The translations under genes were made by a program, and so were the position numbers. Shown here in pieces: positions 2,413 to 56,325 of a stretch of DNA of 64,000 bases (within the stretch, counting starts at the first letter, position 1; each line of letters opens with the position of its first letter). The stretch comes from Candidatus Omnitrophota bacterium (GTDB lineage: Bacteria; Omnitrophota; Gorgyraeia; Gorgyraeales; Gorgyraeaceae), in assembly GCA_042571405.1 (NCBI GenBank), contig JBHPHU010000003.1:3838-67837 (forward strand), given 5' to 3'. The notes beneath the pieces are model-generated. The model made no database searches. It had not been told where the DNA came from and saw nothing but the letters and a program-made list of their open reading frames with translations.

Positions 2413-3579
2413 ATGAGTAAAGCTGTTAAAATTTCGTCCGGGGTTTATTGGGTAGGAGCGGTTGATTGGGATTTGAGGAGTTTTCATGGCTATCTCACTC
2501 AGCGGGGGTCTACCTATAATGCCTATCTGATCATAGACAAGAAAATAACGCTCGTAGATACTGTTAAGCACTATTTTTTTGATGAGATGCTGGAAAATAT
2601 TAAAAAGATAGTGGACCCGGCAAAAATAGACTATATTATTTCAAATCACACTGAGATGGATCATTCTGGAGGATTACCAAGGATGATGGAGATAGCGAAA
2701 AACGCAACCCTTGTGTGTTCTCCTAATGGCGAAAAGGGCTTAAAAAGGCATTTTAAGAAAGACTGGAATTTTAAGGTAGTCAGTTCAGGGGATTCTATTA
2801 ATATAGGCAAACGAAATCTGAAATTTGTATGTGTTCCAATGGTACACTGGCCTGACTCGATGGTAACGTATGTTCCTGAGGAGAAGCTACTTTTGTCTAA
2901 CGACGCATTTGGCCAGCATATTGCGTCAGATGAGCGTTTTGTCGACGAACTTGAATGGGACGTTATTAAGGAAGAGGCGACAAAGTATTACGCGAATATC
3001 GTGCTTCCATATGGACTCCAGGTACAAAAGGCATTAGAGGCGGTTTCATCTCTGGATATAGACGTGATAGCGCCTAGCCATGGGTTGATCTGGCGCAAAA
3101 GACTAAAGGATATCATAGATCTTTATAAAAAATGGTCAACTAATACATGTGATAAAAAAGCAGTTATTGTGTATGATACAATGTGGCATAGCACTGAAAA
3201 AATGGCGCATGTTATAGAAAGCGTCTTTAAGGAAAAAGACATAAAATGCATAATTAAGAATCTTCAAAAAAATCACATATCGGATGTAATGACAGATATA
3301 CTGGATGCAAAATATATATGCGTTGGTTCACCTACCCTGAATAACGGCATGCTCCCTACTATTTCGGCATTTCTGACATACATGAAAGGCCTTGCGCCCA
3401 AAGATAGGGTCGGTATTTCCTTTGGTTCATATGGCTGGGGAGGCCAGAGCATTGGCGAGATAGAAAAGATTTTTGAGTCGTGTAAATTTCAACAGCCTTT
3501 AAAAGGGCTAAAAATACAATATGTACCTGATGATGGAGAATTAGAATCATTTAAACAAAAGATAGGAGGGGTAGTATGA
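2413..3579 (+). CDS. fprA: flavorubredoxin / type A flavoprotein FprA (rubredoxin:oxygen/NO oxidoreductase; metallo-beta-lactamase + flavodoxin domains)
   Basis: 388 aa; VYWVGAVDWDLRSFHGY..., HxExDH-like di-iron motif (SNHTEMDHSGG), C-terminal flavodoxin-like domain; stop overlaps next gene start (ATGA). Confidence 0.85.
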   Translation: MSKAVKISSGVYWVGAVDWDLRSFHGYLTQRGSTYNAYLIIDKKITLVDTVKHYFFDEMLENIKKIVDPAKIDYIISNHTEMDHSGGLPRMMEIAKNATLVCSPNGEKGLKRHFKKDWNFKVVSSGDSINIGKRNLKFVCVPMVHWPDSMVTYVPEEKLLLSNDAFGQHIASDERFVDELEWDVIKEEATKYYANIVLPYGLQVQKALEAVSSLDIDVIAPSHGLIWRKRLKDIIDLYKKWSTNTCDKKAVIVYDTMWHSTEKMAHVIESVFKEKDIKCIIKNLQKNHISDVMTDILDAKYICVGSPTLNNGMLPTISAFLTYMKGLAPKDRVGISFGSYGWGGQSIGEIEKIFESCKFQQPLKGLKIQYVPDDGELESFKQKIGGVV

Positions 3580-4148
3580 TGTTAAAAGGATCAAAGACAG
3601 AAAAAAATCTCCTGGCATCGTTTGCAGGAGAGTCACAGGCAAGGAATCGTTACACGTATTCCGCTAGTGTTGCAAAAAAGGCAGGATATGAGCAGATAGC
3701 AGCTATATTTTTAGAAACAGCTGAAAATGAGAAAGAACATGCAAAGAGGTTTTTTAAGCTACTTCAAGGCGGAGAGGTAGAAATCCAGGCATCGTATCCC
3801 GCAGGCGTAATAGGCGATACAGCGCAGAACCTTGAGGCCTCGGCAGCTGGTGAAAATATGGAGTGGACAAAGCTTTACAAAGATGCGGAAAAGGTAGCGC
3901 GCGAAGAAGGTTTTAACGAAATAGCTGATCAGTTTAAGGAGATCGCAGAGGTTGAGGAAGAACATGAAAAAAGATACAGAAAATTACTAAAGAATATCAA
4001 AGATGGCGCTGTATTTAAAAAAGAAAAGATAGTAAAATGGAAATGTCGGAATTGCGGCTATGTGCATGAAGGCAAAGAAGCGCCTGATAAATGCCCTGCA
4101 TGCGCGCACCCGCAAGCGCATTACGAAATACTCTGTGAGAATTACTAG
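3576..4148 (+). CDS. rbr: rubrerythrin (di-iron ferritin-like domain + C-terminal rubredoxin-like domain)
   Basis: ExxH motifs (EKEHAKRF, EEEHEKRY), C-terminal CRNCGYVHEG...CPACAHP. Confidence 0.9.
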   Translation: MMLKGSKTEKNLLASFAGESQARNRYTYSASVAKKAGYEQIAAIFLETAENEKEHAKRFFKLLQGGEVEIQASYPAGVIGDTAQNLEASAAGENMEWTKLYKDAEKVAREEGFNEIADQFKEIAEVEEEHEKRYRKLLKNIKDGAVFKKEKIVKWKCRNCGYVHEGKEAPDKCPACAHPQAHYEILCENY

Positions 4149-4149
4149 T

Positions 4150-4713
4150 ATGAAAGTTTTAGGCGTAAATGGCAGCCCCAGAATAGACGGCAATACAGAT
4201 ATCCTTCTGGAGAAGGTCCTTGAAGGCGCCAGGAGCAAGGGCGCCCTGACAGAAAAAATCATTCTTAACGAACTCAAATTTTCTCCGTGTCAGGAATGCG
4301 CAAATATAAAAAATAACGGCAGCTGTATTCTTGAGGATGATATGCAGAGGCTTTATGATAAGATCAAAACCACGGATGTCCTAATAATTGCCTCTCCGAT
4401 ATTTTTTGGCAGTCTGACAGCGCAGACAAAGGCGATGATAGACCGTTTTCAATGCGCGTGGCAGGCAAAATTCGTATTAAAAAAGGATATCGGATATAAA
4501 AAGATAAAAGGGGCGTTTATTTCCGTTGAAGGCACAGACAGGAAGGATTTTTTTGACAACGCGAAGTCAATAGTCAGGAATTTATTCGCTATCATTAATG
4601 TAGATTACAAGGAAGAACTTTTTTGTCCAAAGATAGATAGCAAGGGCGCGATACAGAAACACACTGATTGTTTAGAAAAGGCATTCAAATTAGGCGCGAA
4701 AATAGTTTCTTAA
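4150..4713 (+). CDS. NAD(P)H-dependent FMN reductase / iron-sulfur flavoprotein-like (flavodoxin fold)
   Basis: ORF track begins at internal ATG 4060 inside rbr; likely start ATG 4150 (MKVLGVNGSPRIDGNTD...), typical NADPH-dependent FMN reductase N-terminus; Cys motif SPCQECANIKNNGSC as in iron-sulfur flavoproteins. Confidence 0.75.
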   Translation: MKVLGVNGSPRIDGNTDILLEKVLEGARSKGALTEKIILNELKFSPCQECANIKNNGSCILEDDMQRLYDKIKTTDVLIIASPIFFGSLTAQTKAMIDRFQCAWQAKFVLKKDIGYKKIKGAFISVEGTDRKDFFDNAKSIVRNLFAIINVDYKEELFCPKIDSKGAIQKHTDCLEKAFKLGAKIVS

Positions 4714-4929: not shown

Positions 4930-4972
4930 TATCTTTTTTGACAATGCGTTCTTAAATAAGGGGAGGCGGAAG

Positions 4973-5449
4973 ATGGGGAATCTTTTTTCAGGTCCTGAAG
5001 TAGTGGAAATAGGAATACAGATTGAAAAAAATGGCAAGGCCTTTTACGACGGAGTAGCAAAAATAGCAAAAAGCCAAAAGACAAAAGAGATATTTGGATT
5101 TCTTGGGGGAGAAGAAGAGAAGCACATAGAAAGATTCGAAGGTCTACTCGCGCAGGTCAAGAAATACGAACCATCTGAGGCGTATCCAGGCGAATATTTT
5201 GCCTATCTCAGGGCATTATCAGAGGGGTATGTATTTACAAAGGCAAATAAAGGCGCTGAAATTGCAAAAGGTATAACAAGCGAGAAGGATGCGATAGACG
5301 CGGGTATTGGATTTGAAAAAGACTCGATTCTTTTTTATCATGAGATGCAAAAGTTTGTCTTAGGGGGCGAACAGAAGATTATCGATAAGCTCCTTGAAGA
5401 AGAGCAGGCCCATTTAAGAAAATTGACAGAACTAAAGGAGGCTTTATGA
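4973..5449 (+). CDS. rubrerythrin-like / ferritin-like di-iron protein
   Basis: 158 aa; two ExxH motifs (EEEKHIERF, EEEQAHLRKL) typical of erythrin/ferritin-like four-helix bundle; stop overlaps grx start. Confidence 0.6.
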   Translation: MGNLFSGPEVVEIGIQIEKNGKAFYDGVAKIAKSQKTKEIFGFLGGEEEKHIERFEGLLAQVKKYEPSEAYPGEYFAYLRALSEGYVFTKANKGAEIAKGITSEKDAIDAGIGFEKDSILFYHEMQKFVLGGEQKIIDKLLEEEQAHLRKLTELKEAL

Positions 5450-5682
5450 GTAAGAGCGTAAAGATATATTCGACTTCAACTTGCCATTACTGCCACAGGG
5501 CAAAGGATTTTCTTAAAGAGAAAAATATAGCATTTGAGAATATAGACGTAGGCGCTAATCCTGACGCTGGCAAAGAGATGATGGATAAATCAGGCCAGAT
5601 GGGCGTACCCGTCCTTGATATTGACGGCAAGATAATCGTGGGCTTTGATAAAGAGGCGATATCTGAGGCATTGGGCGCATGA
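5446..5682 (+). CDS. glutaredoxin-like protein (CxxC thioredoxin fold)
   Basis: 78 aa; KIYSTSTCHYCHRAKDFL active-site CHYC, GVPVLDIDGK motif. Confidence 0.8.
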   Translation: MSKSVKIYSTSTCHYCHRAKDFLKEKNIAFENIDVGANPDAGKEMMDKSGQMGVPVLDIDGKIIVGFDKEAISEALGA

Positions 5683-6290
5683 AAAGCCTTTTGAAGGCCT
5701 ATAAAAAGAAAAAAACAGATATACGAAACAGGTTGCAAGAGTTCCAGCGTGTATATAAAAAAGGGGATAAGGATATATTCGCCGAACTTTGTTTCTGTAT
5801 ATTGACGCCACAGGCAAAGGCAATTATCTGCGATCAGGCTATCAAGAGATTGCAGAGACATGATTTACTTTTTAATGGCTCCAGGAGAGATGTGAGGCGT
5901 TGTTTAAGAGGTGTGCGTTTTCCTAATAATAAGGCGCGGTATTTAATCGAGGCAAGGAAATGTTCAAATTTAAAGGCCAGGATTGATACAAAAGACCTTA
6001 TCAAGGTCAGGGATTGGCTCGTTGAGAATATTAAAGGTCTTGGCTATAAAGAGGCAAGCCATTTTTTAAGAAACATAGGATTTGGTCAGGACCTGGCTAT
6101 ACTCGATAGGCATATACTTAAGAATTTGAAAAGATACAAAGTCATAAAGAAAATACCGGGTTCATTGACTAGAAAAGAATACATGAAAATAGAAAACAAA
6201 ATGAGAGAGTCTTTTCAACAGTTAAATATCACACTGGAAGAGTTAGACCTCTTATTCTGGTCTAACGAAACAGGCGTGATATTTAAATAA
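5679..6290 (+). CDS. N-glycosylase/DNA lyase, Ogg2/AGOG-type 8-oxoguanine DNA glycosylase (HhH-GPD)
   Basis: 203 aa; FCILTPQAKA... and HFLRNIGFGQDLAILDRHILK helix-hairpin-helix with catalytic Lys/Asp region; co-transcribed with redox genes (ATGA overlap). Confidence 0.65.
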   Translation: MKSLLKAYKKKKTDIRNRLQEFQRVYKKGDKDIFAELCFCILTPQAKAIICDQAIKRLQRHDLLFNGSRRDVRRCLRGVRFPNNKARYLIEARKCSNLKARIDTKDLIKVRDWLVENIKGLGYKEASHFLRNIGFGQDLAILDRHILKNLKRYKVIKKIPGSLTRKEYMKIENKMRESFQQLNITLEELDLLFWSNETGVIFK

Positions 6291-6420: not shown

Positions 6421-6480
6421 GCTAAAACTGCCCACTTTTTGGCTTGCCAAATTCCTGCCTATCTGTTAAAATTACCCCAT

Positions 6481-9400
6481 ATGAAAAAGGCTGTAAAGTA
6501 TCATATAGATTCTAATAATGAATTTATTATAGAAAACTATAACCAGGCAGGGAACTTCTCTAATTTCTTGCCAGGCATAGCAGGACTATTTGGGAAGCCC
6601 ATGTGGGCATTTTATGTCAATAGAGCCCAGTGCGTGTGCAGTTTTGGCATTAAGAGTAAAGACAACCCTATCATGGAATTTTTACCTGCGAATAGGGCCT
6701 ACCAGCTCGTGTCTTCACAAGGCTTCCGAACATTTATAAAAATAAAATCTAAAAAAGAAACCACCCTATATGAACCGTTTCGCGTTAACTCTGAAGCGAC
6801 TCAAAAGATGTTCATTAGTTCTCATGAGCTAAGGCTTAAGGAAGTCAATCACGAGCTTGGTATTGAGGTGGAAGTAACTTATTTTACTATACCCGGTGAA
6901 TCATTTGCAGGTCTTGCAAGAATAGTTACATTAAAGAATATATCAAAGAAAGATTTGAAGATAGAGCTGTTGGACGGCGCGCCTCTTTTTATACCTTATG
7001 GCGTGTCAAATTTCTTCCTTCAGAAGATGAGGCGCACTGTTGAGGCATGGATGCTTGTGGAGAATTTAGCAACGCGCGCTCCGTTTTATAGGTTAAAAGT
7101 TGACCCCCGGGATGTATCTGAGACATCTTTTATAAGCGAGGGTAATTTTTACCTGAGCACCTTATCTAAGCACGGGAAAAAGCCAGAACGCTTGCCTGTC
7201 TTTGTTGATCCGGAATTGATTTTCGGAGAGATCAATGATTTTTCATACCCCGCGAATTTTGTAAATGAGCCGGGGCTCAAAGTGTCTGATTCGCAGGCAA
7301 GCCAGAATAAGCTTCCCTGTGCTATGTCTCTAGCATCGTTCAAGCTTAAAAAAGAAGGGAGTTCGACCCTTTATTCCTTAATAGGCCACATGAGCTCAAA
7401 AGAAAAGCTGAATTCCATGATATCGCGCTTGACTGACAAGCAATTTTTTATAGATAAAAGAGAAGAGAACAAGGCCATTATACAAGAACTTCAAGACGAT
7501 GTTTTTACATGCTCGGCTGAAAATAAATACGATCTTTACTGTAAACAGACATTTCTCGATAACGTACTGCGCGGCGGCTATCCGGTAAATTTCGGAAATT
7601 CCTCGCCTACATTTTATGTATACTCCAGAAAGCATGGCGACCTGGAAAGGGATTACAATAGATTCTATGTAGATCCTACTTATTTCTCGCAGGGTAACGG
7701 TAATTTCAGAGACATGAATCAAAATCGCAGGAACGACGTATTCTTTAATCCTGATGTAGGGGATTCAAATATTTTTAATTTTTATAATCTACAGCAAGCG
7801 GATGGTTTTAATCCTTTAGTCCTGCGCGGAGTAAAATTCAGAGTTAAAAATAACGTATTATTAAGAGACGCCTTTAAAGGAAAAGTAGATTTAAACTCTA
7901 TAAAAAAGATAGAATATATTTTACAGAATGATTTTTCTCCCGGAGAATTTTTCATGACCATTGAAAAGGCCGGTATTAAATTAAAGAGACCATGGCATGA
8001 ATTTCTAGACGAACTTTTAAGGAATTGCGATGCGAAATACGAAGCTACTCATGGTGAGGGATTTTGGATAGACCACTGGACGTACAATCTTGATTTGGTA
8101 GAGAGCTTCTTGTCAGTATATCCGGAGAAGTTAAAAGAGATTTTATTGGATAAAAAAGAATTTACTTTCTACGATAATTCTCATTTCGTAAAATCTCATG
8201 CGGAGAAAAGTCTCCTGGTGGGTCTAGGCAAAGTCAGGCAGTATCATTCATTGGGCCGTGATTTAAAAAAGGAACATTTGATAAAAAAGCGTCATGACGA
8301 CGCGTATGTAATGCGCTCATCTAAAGGAGAGGGAAAGATATATAAGACGACGCTTCTTGTTAAGATGTTGTGCGTTATAGTAAATAAAATCGCGTCTATA
8401 GGTCCTTGCGGCAGAGGCATTGAGATGGAGGCGGATAAGCCAGGCTGGTGCGATTCAATGAATGGCCTGCCGGGATTATTCGGCACATCTACACCCGAGG
8501 TCTTTGAGTTAAAGAGGCAGGTTGTTTTTATATTAGATTCTCTGAAAAAGTTGAGTTTAAGCCCTGGAGTGAAGATCAGGCTTTCAGGGGAAATACAAGA
8601 TTTTATGACAAATCTGGAGTTACTCATTAAGGCATCCAAGAGCAAAAAAGATTTTTATTATTGGAGCAAAGCCAATTTATTAAAGGAGAAGTACAGGAAT
8701 AAGATCAAACTCGGTTTTAGCGGCATCGAAGCTACATTTAGTATTCTAGAATTAGAAAGAATCCTCAAGTTATTCCTTTCAAAAGTAGACTCTGTCATTA
8801 AAAAGACATATATTCCGTCGCAAAATGTTTATGCTACTTATTTCGTAAATGACGTATCTAAATTCAAAAATCTTAATAAGCGGGATCCAGTCACAGAACT
8901 TCCCCTTGTAGAGCCTATGGCTTTTAAAAGCACCAGAATGCCTTTATTTTTAGAAGGAAATGTGCGAGCCATGAGGGTCGAAAAGGACATAAAGAGAAAA
9001 AAGGCGTTGTATAATGCAGTGAAAAAGACATCTCTATATGATAAGAAGCTAAACATGTATAAGCTCAACGGATCTCTGGAAGGCATATCAAAGGAAGTGG
9101 GCCGCTCCAGCGTATTTACGCCTGGGTGGTTAGAGAATGAGTCTATCTGGTTACATATGGAGTACAAATATCTTTTGGAGATTTTGCGAGCAGGCCTTTA
9201 TAAGGAATTTTTCGAGGAATTTAAGAATGTCCTTATACCATTTCAGGAACCAGATGTTTACGGAAGGAGCGTGTTCGAAAATTCATCTTTTATAGTATCA
9301 AGCGCGTTTCCTGATAAGAAGTTACACGGCAGGGGTTTTGTAGCAAGGCTCAGCGGTTCAACCGCGGAGATGATGACTATATGGCTATTGATGAATGTAG

Positions 9401-9726
9401 GGGAGAAACCATTTTTCCTTAATAATAAGGGAGAACTTTGTCTAAAGTTCAGCCCGGTATTGCCAGGTTGTCTTTTTACTCAAAAGGCCAAGAATGGATT
9501 TCCAAAAAATAGTTTTGCGTTTAAGTTTTTAGGCAAGACAACAGTTGTGTACCATAACCCCAGAAGAAAAAATACTGCCGGCGCAAACTCAGTAAAGATA
9601 CGTTTTATTATCATCAAATATGATAGCGGCAAGAAGGTAGAAGTAAAGAAAGGCATTATTGATGCGCCTTACGCGCAAAATATAAGAGACAGAAAAGTAG
9701 AGAGGATAGATATTTACCTTGGATAA
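6481..9726 (+). CDS. large hypothetical protein (~1080 aa), no recognisable catalytic motif (glycoside-hydrolase-like guess at most)
   Basis: ORF track start 6439 is TTG; first ATG at 6481 (MKKAVKYH...). No P-loop, no signal peptide; sequence features (DHWTYNLDLV, GWCDSMNGLPG) do not match a family I can name with confidence. Confidence 0.3.
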   Translation: MKKAVKYHIDSNNEFIIENYNQAGNFSNFLPGIAGLFGKPMWAFYVNRAQCVCSFGIKSKDNPIMEFLPANRAYQLVSSQGFRTFIKIKSKKETTLYEPFRVNSEATQKMFISSHELRLKEVNHELGIEVEVTYFTIPGESFAGLARIVTLKNISKKDLKIELLDGAPLFIPYGVSNFFLQKMRRTVEAWMLVENLATRAPFYRLKVDPRDVSETSFISEGNFYLSTLSKHGKKPERLPVFVDPELIFGEINDFSYPANFVNEPGLKVSDSQASQNKLPCAMSLASFKLKKEGSSTLYSLIGHMSSKEKLNSMISRLTDKQFFIDKREENKAIIQELQDDVFTCSAENKYDLYCKQTFLDNVLRGGYPVNFGNSSPTFYVYSRKHGDLERDYNRFYVDPTYFSQGNGNFRDMNQNRRNDVFFNPDVGDSNIFNFYNLQQADGFNPLVLRGVKFRVKNNVLLRDAFKGKVDLNSIKKIEYILQNDFSPGEFFMTIEKAGIKLKRPWHEFLDELLRNCDAKYEATHGEGFWIDHWTYNLDLVESFLSVYPEKLKEILLDKKEFTFYDNSHFVKSHAEKSLLVGLGKVRQYHSLGRDLKKEHLIKKRHDDAYVMRSSKGEGKIYKTTLLVKMLCVIVNKIASIGPCGRGIEMEADKPGWCDSMNGLPGLFGTSTPEVFELKRQVVFILDSLKKLSLSPGVKIRLSGEIQDFMTNLELLIKASKSKKDFYYWSKANLLKEKYRNKIKLGFSGIEATFSILELERILKLFLSKVDSVIKKTYIPSQNVYATYFVNDVSKFKNLNKRDPVTELPLVEPMAFKSTRMPLFLEGNVRAMRVEKDIKRKKALYNAVKKTSLYDKKLNMYKLNGSLEGISKEVGRSSVFTPGWLENESIWLHMEYKYLLEILRAGLYKEFFEEFKNVLIPFQEPDVYGRSVFENSSFIVSSAFPDKKLHGRGFVARLSGSTAEMMTIWLLMNVGEKPFFLNNKGELCLKFSPVLPGCLFTQKAKNGFPKNSFAFKFLGKTTVVYHNPRRKNTAGANSVKIRFIIIKYDSGKKVEVKKGIIDAPYAQNIRDRKVERIDIYLG

Positions 9727-10429: not shown

Positions 10430-11320
10430 TTAGTAACCGAGATTTTTTAGCGCAAATGGGTCTTTGCGCCAGTTTTCGTAGACTTTGACCCAGAGGTCCA
10501 GAAATACCTTTTTCTGCAGTAGGCCTTCAATTTCTTTCCTGGAATTTTCCCCTATTTTTTTTAGCATTTGTCCGTTCTTACCTATGATTATGGCCTTCTG
10601 GTTTTTTCTTTCCACGTAGATGTGAGCCCTGATATAGTAGAGGTCTTTGTCTTTTTTCTCTTTTATTTCTTCCACAGTTACTGCTATTGCGTGCGGTACT
10701 TCCTGATGAGTCCGTTCCATGACCTTTTCCCTTATGATTTCCTGCATAAGGAAGCGTTCGCTTTTATCGCTTAGCTGGTCTTCCGGGAACAGAGGATAGC
10801 CTTCCGGCAGGTATTCCATGATTTTTTTGAATACGATCTCAGTGCCGTCTTTTTTAGCCGCGGCTATAGGGATTATTTCTTTAAAGGAAAATTTCGTAGC
10901 CTGTTCAATAACGGGCAGCACAAGTCTTTTATCGATCTTGTCCATCTTGTTTATGATTAGAAATGTTTCTTTTTCAAAAGGAAGTTGTTGGAATATTGTT
11001 TTATCTTCTCGGGTGATGCCGCTATATGCGTCGATAAGCATGAGCACAAGGTCTACTTCGAGCAGTGTTGACGCGGCCTTGCGTACCATTGTTTTTCCAA
11101 GAAGCGTATTTGGCCTGTGCATGCCTGGCGTGTCTATGAAGACCACTTGAAAATCTTTACCTGAGATTATGCCTTGTATATTATCCCGCGTGGTTTCTGG
11201 TTTTTTCGAAACAATGCAAAGTTTCTCTTTTATGAGCGCATTGAGAAGCGTAGATTTTCCCACATTGGGCCTTCCGATTATAGCGACTTTACCTGCTTTA
11301 AACATGCTTATATTATACAT
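10430..11320 (-). CDS. era: GTPase Era
   Basis: KVAIIGRPNVGKSTLLNAL (G1), DTPG (G3), NKMD (G4), C-terminal KH domain; likely true start at MFKAG (11302). Confidence 0.9.
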   Translation of the reverse strand: MYNISMFKAGKVAIIGRPNVGKSTLLNALIKEKLCIVSKKPETTRDNIQGIISGKDFQVVFIDTPGMHRPNTLLGKTMVRKAASTLLEVDLVLMLIDAYSGITREDKTIFQQLPFEKETFLIINKMDKIDKRLVLPVIEQATKFSFKEIIPIAAAKKDGTEIVFKKIMEYLPEGYPLFPEDQLSDKSERFLMQEIIREKVMERTHQEVPHAIAVTVEEIKEKKDKDLYYIRAHIYVERKNQKAIIIGKNGQMLKKIGENSRKEIEGLLQKKVFLDLWVKVYENWRKDPFALKNLGY

Positions 11321-11385
11321 GTATGTGGTATAATGGGAAGGAAAATAGGAGTTTATCGTTAATATTTGAAGAGTTGCGTTGCAGT

Positions 11386-11695
11386 TTCAGGCTTTACGCA
11401 CCACCCAGACCACTGGCTCTCGGGGACGCAAAATTCCCCCAGCGCGGGAATTTTGCTCAGCCCCGTGCCTCGCTCGTCTTTTCGGTCCAGCGGGCCATTC
11501 AAAAAGCATACGGAATTTTTTGCGGGCATGGTGTCCGCCGAAGGCGGACGAGCAAAAAATTACGCTGAGTGAAGGCCGCCTCGCTGGGGCGGCTGAGCGT
11601 CTTTTTGAATGGCCCGCTGGACCGAAAAGACACCATGCCCGCTCGACACGGCGTATGCCCCGAGAACCAGTGGTCTGGGTGGTGCTAACTATCAT
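11386..11695. repeat. GC-rich (~60% GC) ~310-bp nested imperfect palindrome / foldback element; candidate structured ncRNA or MITE
   Basis: Outer arms CACCACCCAGACCACTGG(C/T)TCTCGGGG (11398-11424 vs revcomp 11661-11687), inner arms TCTTTTCGGTCCAGCGGGCCATTCAAAAAG (11476-11505 vs 11600-11629), central GTCCGCC-GAAG-GCGGAC, local hairpin GCAAAATTCCC-N7-GGGAATTTTGC; mirrored ORFs on both strands (11379..11699 + and 11387..11695 -) are artefacts of the palindrome. Confidence 0.6.
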
Positions 11696-11729
11696 GTAAC
11701 ATTGAAAATATTATCAATAGGAGTTTATA

Positions 11730-12233
11730 ATGAGAGCATTTTATTTTGCATTGGGTACGGCAGTGGTTTGGGGTATTGTGCCGATTTTGGAAAAGATGGG
11801 TGTGGCGAGGATAGCGCCGCTTGCAGGGGTCATGATACGCTCATTAGGAGTAGTTATAGGCGTGAGTTTTCTGGCTGTATTTAACAGCCAGACCTTTAAG
11901 CTTGCCTTAAAGACAGACCCGCGTACGATATTTTTACTTGTGCTGGGTGGATTTATGGCTAGCATACTTGGTCAGATACTTTTCTATAACGCGCTTAAAA
12001 CCGGAGAGGCGTCAAAGGTTGTTCCTATAGCAGGTATCTATCCCCTGGTCACATTTTTATTAGGGATTATATTTCTGGGAGAAACTGTTACTGTCGCAAA
12101 GGTTGGTGGAGTGATCTTTGTAATCCTGGGGCTATTTTTGCTGAGGCAGGCCTTCTTTGTTTATCTCGATCCTTTTCATCATATTAGACTGGCGGTCACT
12201 TATATCAAACACAGTATCGAGCTCTCCGTCTGA
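11730..12233 (+). CDS. EamA/DMT-superfamily small membrane transporter
   Basis: 167 aa, 4-5 TM helices, EamA-like pattern (...VLGGFMASILGQILFYNALKTGEASKVVPIAGIYPLVTFLLGIIFLGE...); RBS AGGAG; 3' end overlaps convergent gene. Confidence 0.65.
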   Translation: MRAFYFALGTAVVWGIVPILEKMGVARIAPLAGVMIRSLGVVIGVSFLAVFNSQTFKLALKTDPRTIFLLVLGGFMASILGQILFYNALKTGEASKVVPIAGIYPLVTFLLGIIFLGETVTVAKVGGVIFVILGLFLLRQAFFVYLDPFHHIRLAVTYIKHSIELSV

Positions 12234-18919: not shown

Positions 18920-19279
18920 ATGGCGACTTTTTTAAGTTTAATTATTGGCGCATTAGCAGGCGTAGCCAGTGGTTTTTTTGGTATAGGCGGGGCAGTGGTG
19001 ATGGTGCCGCTTTTAGTATGTCTGTTTAAGTTTCCACAGCATTATGCGCAAGGCACTGCCCTTGTCGCGCTTCTTCTGCCCATTGGTATCCTGGCAGTCA
19101 TTAGATATTATCATGCGGGAAATGTAAATATAAAGATAGGTTTGTTTATAAGCCTTGGATTTTTTATAGGAGGGTTTTTTGGGGCGCATTTAGCGCATTT
19201 ATTGCCACAGTTAGCTCTTAAAAGGCTTTTTGGAGTCCTGCTTTTAGGGCTTTCCGTATATATGTTAATGGGTAAATAA
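18920..19279 (+). CDS. TauE/SafE (DUF81) family half-size membrane protein
   Basis: ORF track start 18854 overlaps the divergent gene; ATG 18920 with AGGAAGGA RBS gives MATFLSLIIGALAGVASGFFGIGGAVVMVPLL... (4 TM, GxGGG motif). Confidence 0.6.
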   Translation: MATFLSLIIGALAGVASGFFGIGGAVVMVPLLVCLFKFPQHYAQGTALVALLLPIGILAVIRYYHAGNVNIKIGLFISLGFFIGGFFGAHLAHLLPQLALKRLFGVLLLGLSVYMLMGK

Positions 19280-20406
19280 TGATAAAATCCAATCCTTTTA
19301 CGCCACAGTCAGGGTGGGAGCCGCGCATATTTGGCGGCAGAGAAGAGAACCTTTCTCTTTTTAAATCCAATCTGGGAGATGCGATTTCAGTCAGGCCAAA
19401 TCATTTAGTTGCGCTGGGAGAGTGGGGCATAGGCAAGACTTCTCTTCTTAAACAGTTCAGGAGGATTGCTCAAGAGCAGGGGCATCCATCATGTTTTTGT
19501 TCTCTCTCGAGATTTACAAAAAATGATAAACCTTTAAGCGCTATTCATCTTATTGCTGAAGAGATGCTTATGGGTTTTCCAAATTCCGGCGCAGATCCGG
19601 AAAAGCTCCTAGAAGGATTTTCCAAAAGAAAATCGCTTGCGCAAGCGCAGACGCACTTTACAAAATTTCTCCTGGAGCTCTGGAAGACGCTGGATGCAAA
19701 ACTGGCAGTGGTGATGCTGGATGATCTGCAGAATCTTTTGCCTATCTCGAATACGATCGATATTCTCAGGGCTGTCTTGAGTAAGGATGAAATTATTCGT
19801 AATACGCGATTCTTATTCGTACTTTCTTCTACGCCGGCCGGATGGTCGAGCTTTTTAGATAAGCACGATCCTATCGGCAGGTTTTTCAGAAAACGCATGA
19901 ATGTAGAGAATCTTGATAAAGAAGAAGTTTCAGGGCTCGTTAGTCAGACATTACAGGATACAGGCGTAGATTTTGATGAAGAGGTAAAGGGCAGGATATT
20001 TGATCATACAGACGGTCATCCTTACGAGGTGCAGCTTTTATCCAGCCACTTATATGACGGCCAGATAGCAGGAAAGGTTGATATCTGTACATGGGATAAC
20101 GCGCTTGGTAATACCTTGAAGGAGCTGGGAAGAGATTATTTTAATACATTGTTTGCCAGGGCAAGTGACAGGGAAAAGGATTTATTGAGGGTGCTCTCCG
20201 AAGAGAAAAAGCCGCTTTCCCTAAAGGATTTCAGGACAATGATGATAGTGGGTAGGCACGCGAAGAAATTCCCGGTCGCGAATATAAAGAATTTTCTTTA
20301 CAGATTAGAAGAAAAAGGTATTATAAGTAGAAACGAAAAAGGGAGTTTTAATATCCCTGATCGGATGTTCAGGGAATTTGTTTTAAGAAAGGAGAATGAG
20401 AAATGA
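19279..20406 (+). CDS. P-loop ATPase (AAA+/ORC-Cdc6-like 'ATP-binding protein' with C-terminal winged-helix)
   Basis: Walker A LGEWGIGKTSLL, Walker B VVMLDDLQNL; TAATG overlap with upstream gene. Confidence 0.6.
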   Translation: MIKSNPFTPQSGWEPRIFGGREENLSLFKSNLGDAISVRPNHLVALGEWGIGKTSLLKQFRRIAQEQGHPSCFCSLSRFTKNDKPLSAIHLIAEEMLMGFPNSGADPEKLLEGFSKRKSLAQAQTHFTKFLLELWKTLDAKLAVVMLDDLQNLLPISNTIDILRAVLSKDEIIRNTRFLFVLSSTPAGWSSFLDKHDPIGRFFRKRMNVENLDKEEVSGLVSQTLQDTGVDFDEEVKGRIFDHTDGHPYEVQLLSSHLYDGQIAGKVDICTWDNALGNTLKELGRDYFNTLFARASDREKDLLRVLSEEKKPLSLKDFRTMMIVGRHAKKFPVANIKNFLYRLEEKGIISRNEKGSFNIPDRMFREFVLRKENEK

Positions 20407-43558: not shown

Positions 43559-44422
43559 ATGAGTGAGCAATTTCTTAAAAAGATGTTTAATTCTACCAAA
43601 TGGCCGGTCATAAATTTTGACTTAAGAGAGATATCCCAGGAGGCACAGAAGCTGAGCGGTAAACTTTCCATTTCCGGAGTTCAGCCTAAGCTGTCCGTTA
43701 AGTTGGATAAGAAACAAAATATGTTAATCTCTGTGGCTGAAGGCGGGGAATATATTTTAAAACCGCAAACCCCTACTTTTCCTGATATCCCGGAAAACGA
43801 ACAATGTTGTATGGATATTGCCGAAGAATTAGATATAGATGTTCCGCTTCATTGTTTGATTCCTTTAAAAGATAAGAGTTTTGCTTATGTGGTCAAAAGA
43901 TTTGACCGGGAAAAAAGTGTGAAAATTCACCAGGAAGATTTTACGCAAATTCTTGAACAAGTAGATAAATATAAGGGATCGGTAGAACAAATAGGCCGAA
44001 GACTGAAAGAAATATCTTCAGCGCCGGGTTATGATGTTCAATTATTTTTTGAACGGGTTGTTCTTAGCTTTATTCTTGGCAATGGCGATGCTCATTTAAA
44101 AAATTATTCCATTTCTTATAGAGATAAAGATGATATTCGTTTGACACCCGCTTATGATATTGTATGTTCAAAATTGGTTATTCTCGACGAAGAAGACTCA
44201 GCCATAACTATTAATGGGAAAAAGAATAGATTAGAGCGAGAGGATTTCGATGAATTGGCTGAATATTTAAATATCCCTATAAAAGTTCGGTACGAAAAAT
44301 TTAGAAAGAAGTTTGACCTCATCAGAAAAATCATAAAGATTTCCAATATCGACAAGAAAAAACAACAGCAATTTCTTGAAATAATAAAAGAGAGAGTAAG
44401 CCGTTTAAGATTACCAGAATAA
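43559..44422 (+). CDS. hipT: HipT-like HipA-family Ser/Thr kinase toxin (kinase core)
   Basis: 287 aa; Gly-rich loop SISGVQPKLSV and catalytic GNGDAHLKNYS (DxHxKN) motifs of HipA kinases. Confidence 0.7.
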   Translation: MSEQFLKKMFNSTKWPVINFDLREISQEAQKLSGKLSISGVQPKLSVKLDKKQNMLISVAEGGEYILKPQTPTFPDIPENEQCCMDIAEELDIDVPLHCLIPLKDKSFAYVVKRFDREKSVKIHQEDFTQILEQVDKYKGSVEQIGRRLKEISSAPGYDVQLFFERVVLSFILGNGDAHLKNYSISYRDKDDIRLTPAYDIVCSKLVILDEEDSAITINGKKNRLEREDFDELAEYLNIPIKVRYEKFRKKFDLIRKIIKISNIDKKKQQQFLEIIKERVSRLRLPE

Positions 44423-54423: not shown

Positions 54424-56325
54424 ATGCAAAAAAGATTTATTAAGCTCATATCATTTGTTACGATAGTGTTTTTATATATTACTGCAGCATATCCTGCCGA
54501 GACTGAAAAATTTCCAAATATACATAAGTTAAGGCCAGCGATAGGTGGATATGAAGACATAGAGAGTCTTTATTATTCTAGTTTCAGGAAAGATCTTATC
54601 AATGGTAAGACTTTTCGCATATTTGAAGTATTTGAGACAAAATCAGGCAACCTTACCAAAGATACAGCAGTAAAATTAATTGATACGGCGCATAAATTAT
54701 ATCTTTCGCGTAGAAAGGATTTAAGAGGAAAAACAGAATTTAAGGACCTATTGGAAAAAATGGAATATATATTGCATAGCTTTATATATGGGGCCATTGC
54801 TTATGAGTTAAATCAGCGCCCTGAAGGAAATAAGGCGCTAAAAGAGATCTTTTTTTTAACTGAAAAAAGGTTAGCAGAGCCTATAATAAAAGAATATTTT
54901 GATGAATTAGATAGCATCCCGAACGAAAAAGACAAGCCTGAAAAAATAATAGAGTATCTTATTGGTAATGACGAGTATAGCATTAAAGGGTTTTTTGAAA
55001 TAGCGCTCTTAAATGCAGAATTTGTTTCTAAGAATGCTATTGCAAATCTAGAGAGCATGCTGGGCAATGACAAGAAGAACGCAATTAATAAGACGGTGAA
55101 TTCTATCATTGAATCGGTAGAAGAGATTCAAGGTTTAGAAAAACTAGAGAGAGACTCTAAAATAACTATTCAAGACGACTTAAAGAATTTTGTGGATGAC
55201 GCTATATTAAATTTTAAGCAACTCAATCATGAAGAAGTATCTAAAGCTATTCTCAATATAGACAATAAACTTGCCAGTCGTGACTTAACAGGAGACTTTC
55301 GATATTCAGATCTATATGATGAAAAGAACACATCTCTTTCATTTTTCAGATTATTGCCTGCGTTGGCGGCAGAGGCATATATAATAGATTCAACTGATAA
55401 TGAATATATAGAGTTCTTATCTGTCTTAGAAAATTCAGGCATGAAAGAACGCTACAGGAACAAGGCATTGGAAGCCCTATTGGCTTTTCAGGCATTAAAG
55501 TTAAAACAGAACAATAAACCATGCGCAGCTGTTAGGATCAGGCTTGGGTTGGGAGAGTTATGGAGCTATCTTAACAACGGCTATGTTTATAATATCAGGC
55601 ATATACCCCCTTTGCCACCCATAGTCGAGAAATTAGATAAGTTTATAGAGAGACTTTCTGTTTTAAGAGAACTGAAAGAAATACGTGGAATACCTAATGG
55701 TGTTAAAAGCAAAAAACTCATATCAGGTTACGCGCGCAAGTTAAAAAACCTGGGCATAAATATAACAGAAATTTTATACAAGAACGAGAAACAGCTTATA
55801 AGTGAGAAAAGCAGGATATTGAAACAAGTCAATTTAATAAAATTGGAAATGATAAGTAATTTCCTGCAGGATAAGTACGTAGAGACTTTGCAGTCTATGA
55901 AAGAAATGACAGAGCTTGTTAAAGCAGACATAAAAGCTGCTATGTACGTAGCTACCCCTTCAGATATTAAAAAATTATTACCGGTCTTATTGGCCCAAAG
56001 CATTATAGTAAATTCAACAGTAAAGGAGTACCGGGATTTTGTAGATACTTTGAATGTTTTTGGATATTCTAAGAATGAGGCTATGGGGGAGTTGAGAAAA
56101 TTAGTGGTTACCCAGGCATTGAAGAGCAATAATCTTCTTACTGATCCTGCCGCCGAGTTTTTAAGAATTCCAGCAATAATGTTACGTGACCTTTTAGAGG
56201 ACGAATATATCTCTATAATCTCCAATATACCTATTTCACTGGATGCTCCAAGAATAGACTTTGAACAATTAAAGGCGCACAAGATAATAAGAAACAGTAA
56301 AAACTCTACTGCATATTTCCTTTGA
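54424..56325 (+). CDS. leader-cluster protein 5: hypothetical protein with N-terminal leader + KLRPAIGGY motif
   Basis: MQKRFIKLISFVTIVFLYITAAYPAETEKFPNIHKLRPAIGGYED...; otherwise alpha-helical, no recognised domain. Confidence 0.45.
   Translation: MQKRFIKLISFVTIVFLYITAAYPAETEKFPNIHKLRPAIGGYEDIESLYYSSFRKDLINGKTFRIFEVFETKSGNLTKDTAVKLIDTAHKLYLSRRKDLRGKTEFKDLLEKMEYILHSFIYGAIAYELNQRPEGNKALKEIFFLTEKRLAEPIIKEYFDELDSIPNEKDKPEKIIEYLIGNDEYSIKGFFEIALLNAEFVSKNAIANLESMLGNDKKNAINKTVNSIIESVEEIQGLEKLERDSKITIQDDLKNFVDDAILNFKQLNHEEVSKAILNIDNKLASRDLTGDFRYSDLYDEKNTSLSFFRLLPALAAEAYIIDSTDNEYIEFLSVLENSGMKERYRNKALEALLAFQALKLKQNNKPCAAVRIRLGLGELWSYLNNGYVYNIRHIPPLPPIVEKLDKFIERLSVLRELKEIRGIPNGVKSKKLISGYARKLKNLGINITEILYKNEKQLISEKSRILKQVNLIKLEMISNFLQDKYVETLQSMKEMTELVKADIKAAMYVATPSDIKKLLPVLLAQSIIVNSTVKEYRDFVDTLNVFGYSKNEAMGELRKLVVTQALKSNNLLTDPAAEFLRIPAIMLRDLLEDEYISIISNIPISLDAPRIDFEQLKAHKIIRNSKNSTAYFL

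Follow-up and report, generated by a model that had tools for sequence, protein, structure and literature searches.

A GC-rich nested palindrome between era and an EamA gene in Candidatus Omnitrophota, read as the core of a decayed miniature transposable element

Between era and an EamA gene, a 64-kb stretch of DNA from a Candidatus Omnitrophota bacterium (contig JBHPHU010000003.1; the whole of this stretch is called the window) contains a GC-rich nested palindrome that raises the question of whether it is the gene of a structured RNA or a piece of mobile DNA. A sequence-only reading had put forward both a structured non-coding RNA (ncRNA) and a foldback transposon, and had named the search for copies elsewhere with flanking duplications as the test to separate them; such a search settles the choice between an RNA gene and a mobile palindrome quickly. 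Only the foldback transposon held. We consider it very probable that window positions 11357–11715 are a decayed copy of a non-autonomous DNA transposon of the foldback type (a MITE, or miniature inverted-repeat transposable element), not a structured RNA gene. The family is dispersed in genomes of Candidatus Omnitrophota near Ca. Gorgyraea atricola, in an uncultivated phylum known nearly wholly from metagenomes. For genome scans, this means that a GC-rich and perfectly pairing region in an AT-rich genome, even one with compensatory changes, can be a mobile DNA palindrome.

A 20-mer pattern taken from the palindrome's outer arm was used to scan a single genome for each species. Of the four matches returned, two (L099 and L101) are genuine copies and lie at separate loci of a single metagenome-assembled genome (MAG), CAZWYD01, which is labelled ‘Planctomycetia’ and has a syntenic era locus (L118) of the Gorgyraea-like group. 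The same pattern in a metagenome scan recovered seven contigs of Ga0180007 (L102–L108), and two further copies (L121 and L139) were found through synteny alone; the 64-kb window holds one copy. All copies are intergenic and lie at unrelated loci among housekeeping genes, for example downstream of thi4, upstream of rmuC, or beside shikimate kinase, miaB-like, TPR and GGDEF genes. The insertion sites are varied AT-rich intergenic sequences, and the other copies are ~125–370 bp in size. Contig L101 ends and contig L139 starts within the element, which we read as assembly breaks at the repeat. The core had no blastn match to plasmids and phages, and four viral contig scans gave nothing, or single chance matches that did not extend.

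The five best-preserved copies each have their own flanking direct repeat of 13–18 bp, and these repeats differ from one another. Flanks were shuffled 2000 times, and we counted the shuffles with an exact repeat at least as long as the one observed:

Window copy: AATAGGAGTTTAT, 13 exact bases, 1 of 2000 shuffles
L102: AAATTAGGGGGGG, 13 exact bases (16 of 17 with one mismatch), 0 of 2000 shuffles
L106: GATYAACTAAAGTT, 10 exact bases (13 of 14 with one mismatch), 9 of 2000 shuffles
L107: TAAGTGTAAAGTTAA, 15 exact bases, 0 of 2000 shuffles
L108: ATATAGTTGTATTTTTTA, 18 exact bases, 0 of 2000 shuffles

Because there are multiple copies with flanking duplications of their own, the family is to be read as a MITE rather than as an ncRNA.

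The region upstream of rmuC preserves both states of an insertion site. The empty site, in Ca. Gorgyraea atricola (L136) and two metagenome contigs (L137 and L138), reads CTT-AAAAAATACAACTATAT-AGGTTGAACC once, and in L108 the element lies exactly between two copies of the 17-mer AAAAAATACAACTATAT. The RmuC protein of L139 is identical to those of L137 and L138, yet in L139 that position holds the element in a long version; both alleles thus exist within one species, and the empty and filled alleles prove insertion. Ga0117905 has the filled allele, and Ga0118719 and Ga0118720 have the empty one. With unrelated loci and copy-specific duplications, this pair answers the separating test in favour of a MITE. 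In L107, the duplication is fixed at 15 bp and the termini are TAT...ACA; an additional A in L139 is consistent with this end.

The palindrome is no more than the core of a 359-bp unit (~11357–11715). The extent given originally, 11386–11695, covers the GC-rich core and falls short of the full unit and its flanking repeats, the parts of which are as follows:

11344–11356, unstranded: left copy of the target-site duplication, AATAGGAGTTTAT; direct repeat, 13 matching bases of a probable 15
11357–11397, plus strand: left AT-rich terminal arm (LE), cgTTAATATTTGAAGAGTTGCGTTGCAGTTTCAGGCTTTAC; conserved in 11 copies, inverted repeat of the right end
11398–11425, plus strand: left outer arm (P1), GCACCACCCAGACCACTGGCTCTCGGGG; inverted repeat, in all family copies
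11428–11456, plus strand: hairpin H2, GCAAAATTCCC-CCAGCGC-GGGAATTTTGC; inverted repeat
11457–11475, plus strand: linker TCAGCCCCGTGCCTCGCTC; the same in most copies, ends where hairpin modules are exchanged
11476–11631, unstranded: nested module M1, identified by inverted repeats and folds
11476–11506 and 11601–11631: inner arms of M1; 31 nt, 100% complementary
11511–11523 and 11552–11564: stem inside the inner arms of M1
11533–11549: central hairpin GTCCGCC-GAA-GGCGGAC, inside M1
~11574–11594: hairpin GGCCGCC...GGCGGC, inside M1
11632–11657, plus strand: junction with the small hairpin ACCATGCCCGCTCGACACGGCGTATG; conserved across copies, a short hairpin in the fold
11658–11685, plus strand: right outer arm (P1); inverted repeat partner of the left P1
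11686–11715, plus strand: AT-rich terminal arm on the right (RE), TAACTATCATGTAACATTGAAAATATTATC; matched by right ends in L102, L104, L106 and L107
11716–11728, unstranded: right copy of the target-site duplication, AATAGGAGTTTAT; the AGGAG within it (11719–11723) is the EamA ribosome-binding site

The reverse complement of RE aligns with LE, and across the family 11 left ends and 5 reverse-complemented right ends form one block (alignment A1). The end consensus is 5′-TRTAATATTT...GTTACGTNACAGTT...GCACCACCCAGACCACTGGCTCTCGGGG, an AT-rich terminus that runs into the GC-rich arm, with the conserved block GTTACGTNACAGTT at approximately positions 16–29 of the element ends. Since the left and reverse-complemented right ends align into the GC-rich arm, the whole terminal inverted repeat is ~65 nt long; it is imperfect. 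The AT-rich stretch TATTTGAAGAGTTRCGTTRCAGTTT to the left of the outer arm is common to the window, L099 and L101, and an AT-rich right end is common to copies L102–L108 of the metagenome set. Both termini are degenerate in the window copy, with GTT for the family consensus TAT at the left and ATC for ACA at the right.

The core is much as it had been described. GC content is 0.608 across 11398–11685 and 0.398 for the entire window, close to the ~60% and ~38% first noted for region and genome, and the bin 11401–11700 (GC 0.59) is the highest of all 300-nt bins in the window. The nested arms are present at 28 nt (P1, 96% complementary) and 31 nt (inner, 100%); the one C/A mismatch in P1 is the position that had been marked by a dot. 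The central hairpin, the GCAAAATTCCC/GGGAATTTTGC hairpin and the GGCCGCC...GGCGGC hairpin were all located in the sequence. The mirror-image open reading frames (ORFs) of ~100 amino acids also exist (106 amino acids on the plus strand, 102 on the minus strand), and the 106-amino-acid ORF has no homologue among 5.8 billion proteins. Folding of the core gives −184.9 kcal/mol for the plus strand (z = −12.5) and −191.2 kcal/mol for the minus strand (z = −12.95), values that none of 100 shuffles equalled for either strand.

Comparison between copies indicates that the core evolves as a DNA palindrome, through exchange of modules at a fixed point, deletions at the centre, and flipping between the 28-bp outer arms. 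The smallest copy (L108, ~125 nt) consists of the two ends and one long hairpin. Larger copies add conserved linkers together with a hairpin module, whose position is fixed between ...CCTCGCTCG and CACCRTGCCCG..., so that what follows CTCGCTCG varies from copy to copy. At least three unrelated modules occur there, none with any duplication:

Module type 1: the window type, with GTCTTTTCGGTCC... arms
Module type 2: TCCCGCCCTTTTG...CAAAAGGGCGGGA
Module type 3: CTAAAGTAGACAAAACAG...

L099, L107 and L139 carry M1; different hairpin modules stand in its place in L102, L103, L105, L106 and L121, and L106 has a further module nested nearby. Two modules also stand alone in intergenic DNA (L102 2598–2634, L136 15596–15641, L136 6373–6475 and the leader of L110). 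The copies form a deletion series at the central hairpin, whose loop is 63 nt long and AT-rich in L099 and shrinks through L102 and L139 to 3 nt in the window. The orientation of the core relative to the left end and the neighbouring genes is opposite in L099, L103 and L121.

Could these hairpins nonetheless be RNA helices kept by selection in a multi-copy ncRNA gene? We regard this as very unlikely. Both strands do fold very stably, and in each of six cores compared the minus strand is the more stable one by 4–10 kcal/mol, though the copies are related to one another. Across ten copies of H2, pairing holds in 97% of cells, and both sides have changed in 3 of 11 pairs; such changes show that pairing is maintained, in a way that fits DNA and RNA alike. 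The compensatory-looking pairing and GC enrichment noticed at first are thus real, but as a sign of RNA they are explained equally well by a DNA palindrome. No Rfam family reached threshold in the region (with a permissive threshold), in the whole window or in six other loci, in agreement with the earlier impression that RNase P, tmRNA, SRP and 6S motifs are not matched; the sole Rfam matches were generic hairpins of the miRNA-precursor kind, far under threshold. Stems of 28 and 31 bp that are near-perfect or perfect seem a better fit to a DNA palindrome, whole sub-hairpins are swapped or deleted between copies so that the architecture is not constant, and three copies have the core reversed with respect to the element ends and the adjacent genes. 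G–U pairs and C–A mismatches occur on both strands, without a consistent strand signal. By eye, the C–A mismatches of the main arm all fell on one strand, and this candidate signal was dropped because G–U pairs are found there too. The inverted-repeat ends, duplications and empty alleles also argue against an RNA gene. Core flipping might instead point to an inverton, in which the 28-bp outer arms act as recombination sites and the segment flips to control EamA. The window and L121/L122, which share the locus and the side of the left end, do have opposite core orientations, and the core is flipped in L099 and L103 as well. Inverted repeats of ~28 bp can flip via ordinary recombination or template switching, however, and the opposite orientations are seen between species, not within one population. 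Promoter-like matches on the plus strand lie at the core edges or outside the core, with none inside, a scan of 20 window ORFs gave no recombinase, and flipping a core that is nearly palindromic changes little; control of EamA by inversion is therefore extremely improbable.

Two other mobile systems were weighed against the MITE reading. GC-rich hairpins in intergenic DNA and solitary modules (L102 2598–2634, L136 6373–6475 and L136 15596–15641) recall repeats of the REP/REPIN or IS200/IS605 type, which a Y1 (HUH) transposase, for instance a RAYT, mobilizes in single-stranded form, and the insertion of modules at a fixed core point without duplication could fit such a process for the nested modules, not for the whole element. 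The whole element has long terminal inverted repeats and 13–18-bp duplications, and to our knowledge REP/REPIN and IS200/IS605-type families make neither; for the nested modules, this does not settle the matter. A Y1 transposase gene did not turn up in the small part of any genome that was examined, and for the element as a whole we hold this origin to be highly improbable. The length of the duplication raises a different candidate, a miniature casposon derivative integrated by a Cas1-type integrase, as such enzymes make ~14–15-bp duplications. Here, DDE transposases of the IS3, IS481, IS1202 or Tn7 type are the ones that suit the TRT...ACA termini with a conserved block around position 20, neither cas1 nor polB was seen near any copy (among window ORFs and ORFs beside copies), and the insertion sites are varied and AT-rich rather than one tRNA-type site. 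A Cas1-type integrase is accordingly the weaker alternative to an IS1202-type enzyme, and a casposon origin has hardly any probability.

By every structural criterion tested, the element is a MITE of a new family. Unusual features are the long duplication, the composite inverted repeat of 65 nt and a hairpin core that is nested and exchangeable; even so, it stays within the known kind. We hypothesize that a transposase encoded elsewhere would bind both ends and excise or copy the element, which would then be joined to a target whose strands are cut ~15 bp apart (at most 17); once repaired, these staggered ends would give rise to the flanking duplication. In the window, the copy inserted in the EamA leader, duplicating the ribosome-binding site, and decayed afterwards. 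No transposase was found among the 20 window ORFs or the 10 ORFs beside other copies. What the data show is the repeat family, its terminal inverted repeats, copy-specific duplications, empty and filled alleles, and the lack of both coding capacity and a neighbouring transposase; mobilization in trans, the stagger length and the enzyme type are what we infer.

Several observations weigh against this account. An autonomous partner with the same ends was not found among the ORFs scanned in the window and beside copies, so that mobilization in trans can only be proposed. The degenerate copies L103 and L121 have no significant flanking duplication in the shuffle test, and the exact length of the duplication in L108 is ambiguous (15–17 bp), as the element's outermost T and A are the same as bases of the target. 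The outer-arm pattern favours copies with conserved outer arms, and the copy numbers are lower bounds. The empty site of the window copy was not recovered among orthologous loci of close relatives, where the corresponding spot is in every case filled by this element or another palindrome; an uninterrupted GGAAAATAGGAGTTTATAATG in the era–EamA leader is what that empty site would be. Finally, at two loci, members of different subfamilies occupy the same position in different species, which simple random insertion does not explain.

These same-position copies are L108 2125–2268 and L139 1–224 at the rmuC site, and the window and L121 at the era site. They share the nucleotide position and the orientation and differ in left-end subtype (TTTCAGG versus TTTATTAGG); they could have arisen through separate insertions into a hot spot, or through conversion among dispersed copies. 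Selection was considered as a reading of the outer arm's near-invariance and rejected, because most copies were found with a pattern from that arm. A solo left end (L105 ~1116–1285) and a solo right end (L104 ~5296–5343) are joined to ordinary chromosomal DNA and share the junction sequence ATATATTATA in opposite orientation. They may result from rearrangement, or from a second insertion that split a copy; the idea that they are the ends of a long autonomous element was rejected, as the interiors are ordinary chromosomal genes.

Duplications of ~15 bp are rare among bacterial insertion sequences. The length points to a little-studied group of transposases, and the conserved ends of the miniature element could reveal what such enzymes require of a substrate. 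IS1202-family elements, which have TnsB-like DDE transposases, end in 5′-TGT...ACA-3′, and their ISTde1 subgroup makes duplications of 15–17 bp, with another conserved block around position 20 (bioRxiv 10.1101/2022.12.17.520857; PMC10132070). Our copies agree in duplication length (15 bp in L107 and 15–17 bp in L108). Agreement at the ends is partial: the right ends of L106, L107 and L108 read TGT, ACA is present, and the block GTTACGTNACAGTT is at positions 16–29. The left ends are TAT rather than TGT, which counts against this assignment (the window copy is mutated at both ends), and IS1202/ISTde1 elements are 1.3–1.7 kb long with their own transposase, whereas no cognate transposase was found here. 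On balance, these end sequences and duplications make an IS1202-family, ISTde1-subgroup, TnsB-like DDE transposase a possible but somewhat doubtful candidate for the mobilizing enzyme. We found no MITEs tied to IS1202 in the literature, and the word MITE is absent from the texts of bioRxiv 10.1101/2022.12.17.520857 and PMC10132070.

Like the Correia elements of Neisseria, cyanobacterial Nezha and MITEAba12 of Acinetobacter (PMC6382973), the element is small (125–370 bp), has no coding capacity, carries terminal inverted repeats and copy-specific target-site duplications, and occurs in many intergenic copies near promoters or ribosome-binding sites, with size variants that arise via internal deletion. 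It differs from such MITEs in its unusually long inverted repeat (~65 nt), in which an AT-rich terminus is joined to a GC-rich arm, and in an interior of nested hairpin modules that are exchanged and flipped. Classical bacterial MITEs make duplications of 2–9 bp, compared with 15–17 bp here. The REP, BIME and REPIN repeats are similar in that GC-rich intergenic hairpins are combined into mosaics, and small modules of our family are also solitary; these repeats depend on RAYT genes, of which we saw none, and, as far as we know, have no such terminal inverted repeats or target duplications, both of which the element has. Eukaryotic foldback (FB) transposons likewise consist almost wholly of inverted repeat, vary in length and undergo internal rearrangement and inversion. 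They are eukaryotic and much larger, with arms of tandem subrepeats, and the likeness is one of analogy only.

A bolder proposal is that the family is the first miniature derivative of the ISTde1-type, TnsB-like branch of IS1202, and that its core, rather than being passive filler, is a landing pad in which a second, independent system of small hairpin repeats inserts, swaps and flips, making a two-layer ‘Russian-doll’ mobile element. We think this improbable; if it were true, the different subfamilies at two promoter-proximal sites would be explained by target preference or overwriting conversion.

Some hairpins related to the core were seen on their own. The hairpin AAAGTAGACAAAACAG-loop-CTGTTTTGTCTACTTT stands alone between genes (L102 2598–2634 and L136 15596–15641), where it looks like a terminator, and is also the central module nested in copies L103 and L105; it appears to be a separate REP-like repeat family. 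A palindromic element of ~130 nt, which ends in ...GTGCTCATTGAAGGAGG, is found in Ca. Gorgyraea atricola (L136 6373–6500) and in L110 (~3800–3960), both times directly before a start codon (of ribH and EamA, respectively), as if supplying a ribosome-binding site, and is also nested within the L106 copy. In L100, a contig of a Planctomycetota MAG (58% GC), two terminator-like hairpins GGCACCCCGAGACCCAGACCACTGGCTCTCGGGGTTTTTTT at 4290–4335 and 2690–2735 share 23 (and 21 of 23) bases with the outer arm. By our estimate this likeness is too long for chance, and it may be a hint at the origin of the GC-rich arm.

What does the insertion mean for the host locus? Homologues of Era, and Pfam PF00892 on syntenic EamA orthologues, bear out the position between era and an EamA gene. 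A further feature lies to the left of the element:

11324–11334, plus strand: extended −10 TGTGGTATAAT; host sequence outside the element, as read in the sequence

This motif is probably the EamA promoter. It is conserved in all close orthologous loci (L110, L111, L121 and L131), and the sequences diverge a few bases downstream of it, which places the element in the EamA 5′ leader. The insertion point is ~10–20 bp downstream of the extended −10 and overlaps the ribosome-binding site; the AGGAG within the right copy of the duplication keeps the correct spacing before the EamA ATG at 11730. The plus strand showed no terminator-like site, and transcription read-through from the promoter into EamA is therefore plausible. 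Given its mutated termini (GTT for TAT and ATC for ACA) and decayed duplication (13 of ~15), the window copy is probably old and no longer mobile. The Era protein of the window is identical to an NCBI protein assigned to ‘Candidatus Omnitrophota bacterium’ and 93% identical to that of Ca. Gorgyraea atricola. Look-ups by exact protein gave no record for the window Era and EamA, or for a further protein (P0123). The related copy at the same position in L121/L122, where Era is 94% identical, has a different left-end subtype and a flipped core.

Repeats of this family appear to break short-read assemblies, to occupy promoter and leader regions, and to differ between close strains; because of these differences and this location, they could serve as strain markers and may affect expression. 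Such small repeats were not found described in the literature on Omnitrophota, and the text of the Omnitrophota genome paper does not contain the terms MITE, palindrome or inverted repeat. Among its complete-tier genomes, bioRxiv 10.64898/2026.06.07.730766 reports 14 Gorgyraeales.

The EamA leader was compared past the conserved −10 (window 11335–11729, L110 3781–4000, L111 3768–4000, L131 749–992, L132 2836–3000 and L121 3684–4000), and each close lineage has a different palindromic element there. The window and L121 have the GC-rich element, L110 has a CCCCATTCCAAATTCT...GGAACGGGG element, L111–L120 and L131 have AT-rich long hairpins, and L132 has another hairpin. The leader looks like an insertion hot spot, or like a place where a large hairpin is tolerated or useful. 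A sigma-70-like TTGAAA-18-TATAAT sequence (11702–11731, 11 of 12 matching) is built from the right end of the element and flanking DNA; it was rejected as the EamA promoter because its −10 overlaps the start codon and it would not express the full gene. On the minus strand (11303–11339), TATAAT at 11317–11312 is ~7 nt upstream of the era ATG at 11305, the start used by the NCBI Era protein (291 amino acids), and era appears from this spacing to be leaderless.

L121 has, between era and a DsbD_2-like gene (4941–5790), an extra 148-amino-acid ORF without a Pfam match, hydrophobic by eye, and a diverged composite palindrome of the same superfamily (CACCACCCAGACCAGTG..., with GTCTTTTTGAGCTCACAGGCTGGGG arms), both absent from the window. 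Beside the truncated copy in L099, a 221-amino-acid ORF (2413–3078) has a weak, below-cut-off match to HEPN_AbiU2, a domain of the phage-defence type. Elsewhere in the window, genes at 43559–44422, 44545–45930 and 19279–20406 encode a HipA-like toxin domain, ATPase_2 with DUF234, and a STAND-like ATPase, respectively. Four window ORFs of 439–1095 amino acids (6439–9726, 46129–47661, 47724–49043 and 54424–56325) have no Pfam match, and the one of 1095 amino acids is conserved beside era in relatives.

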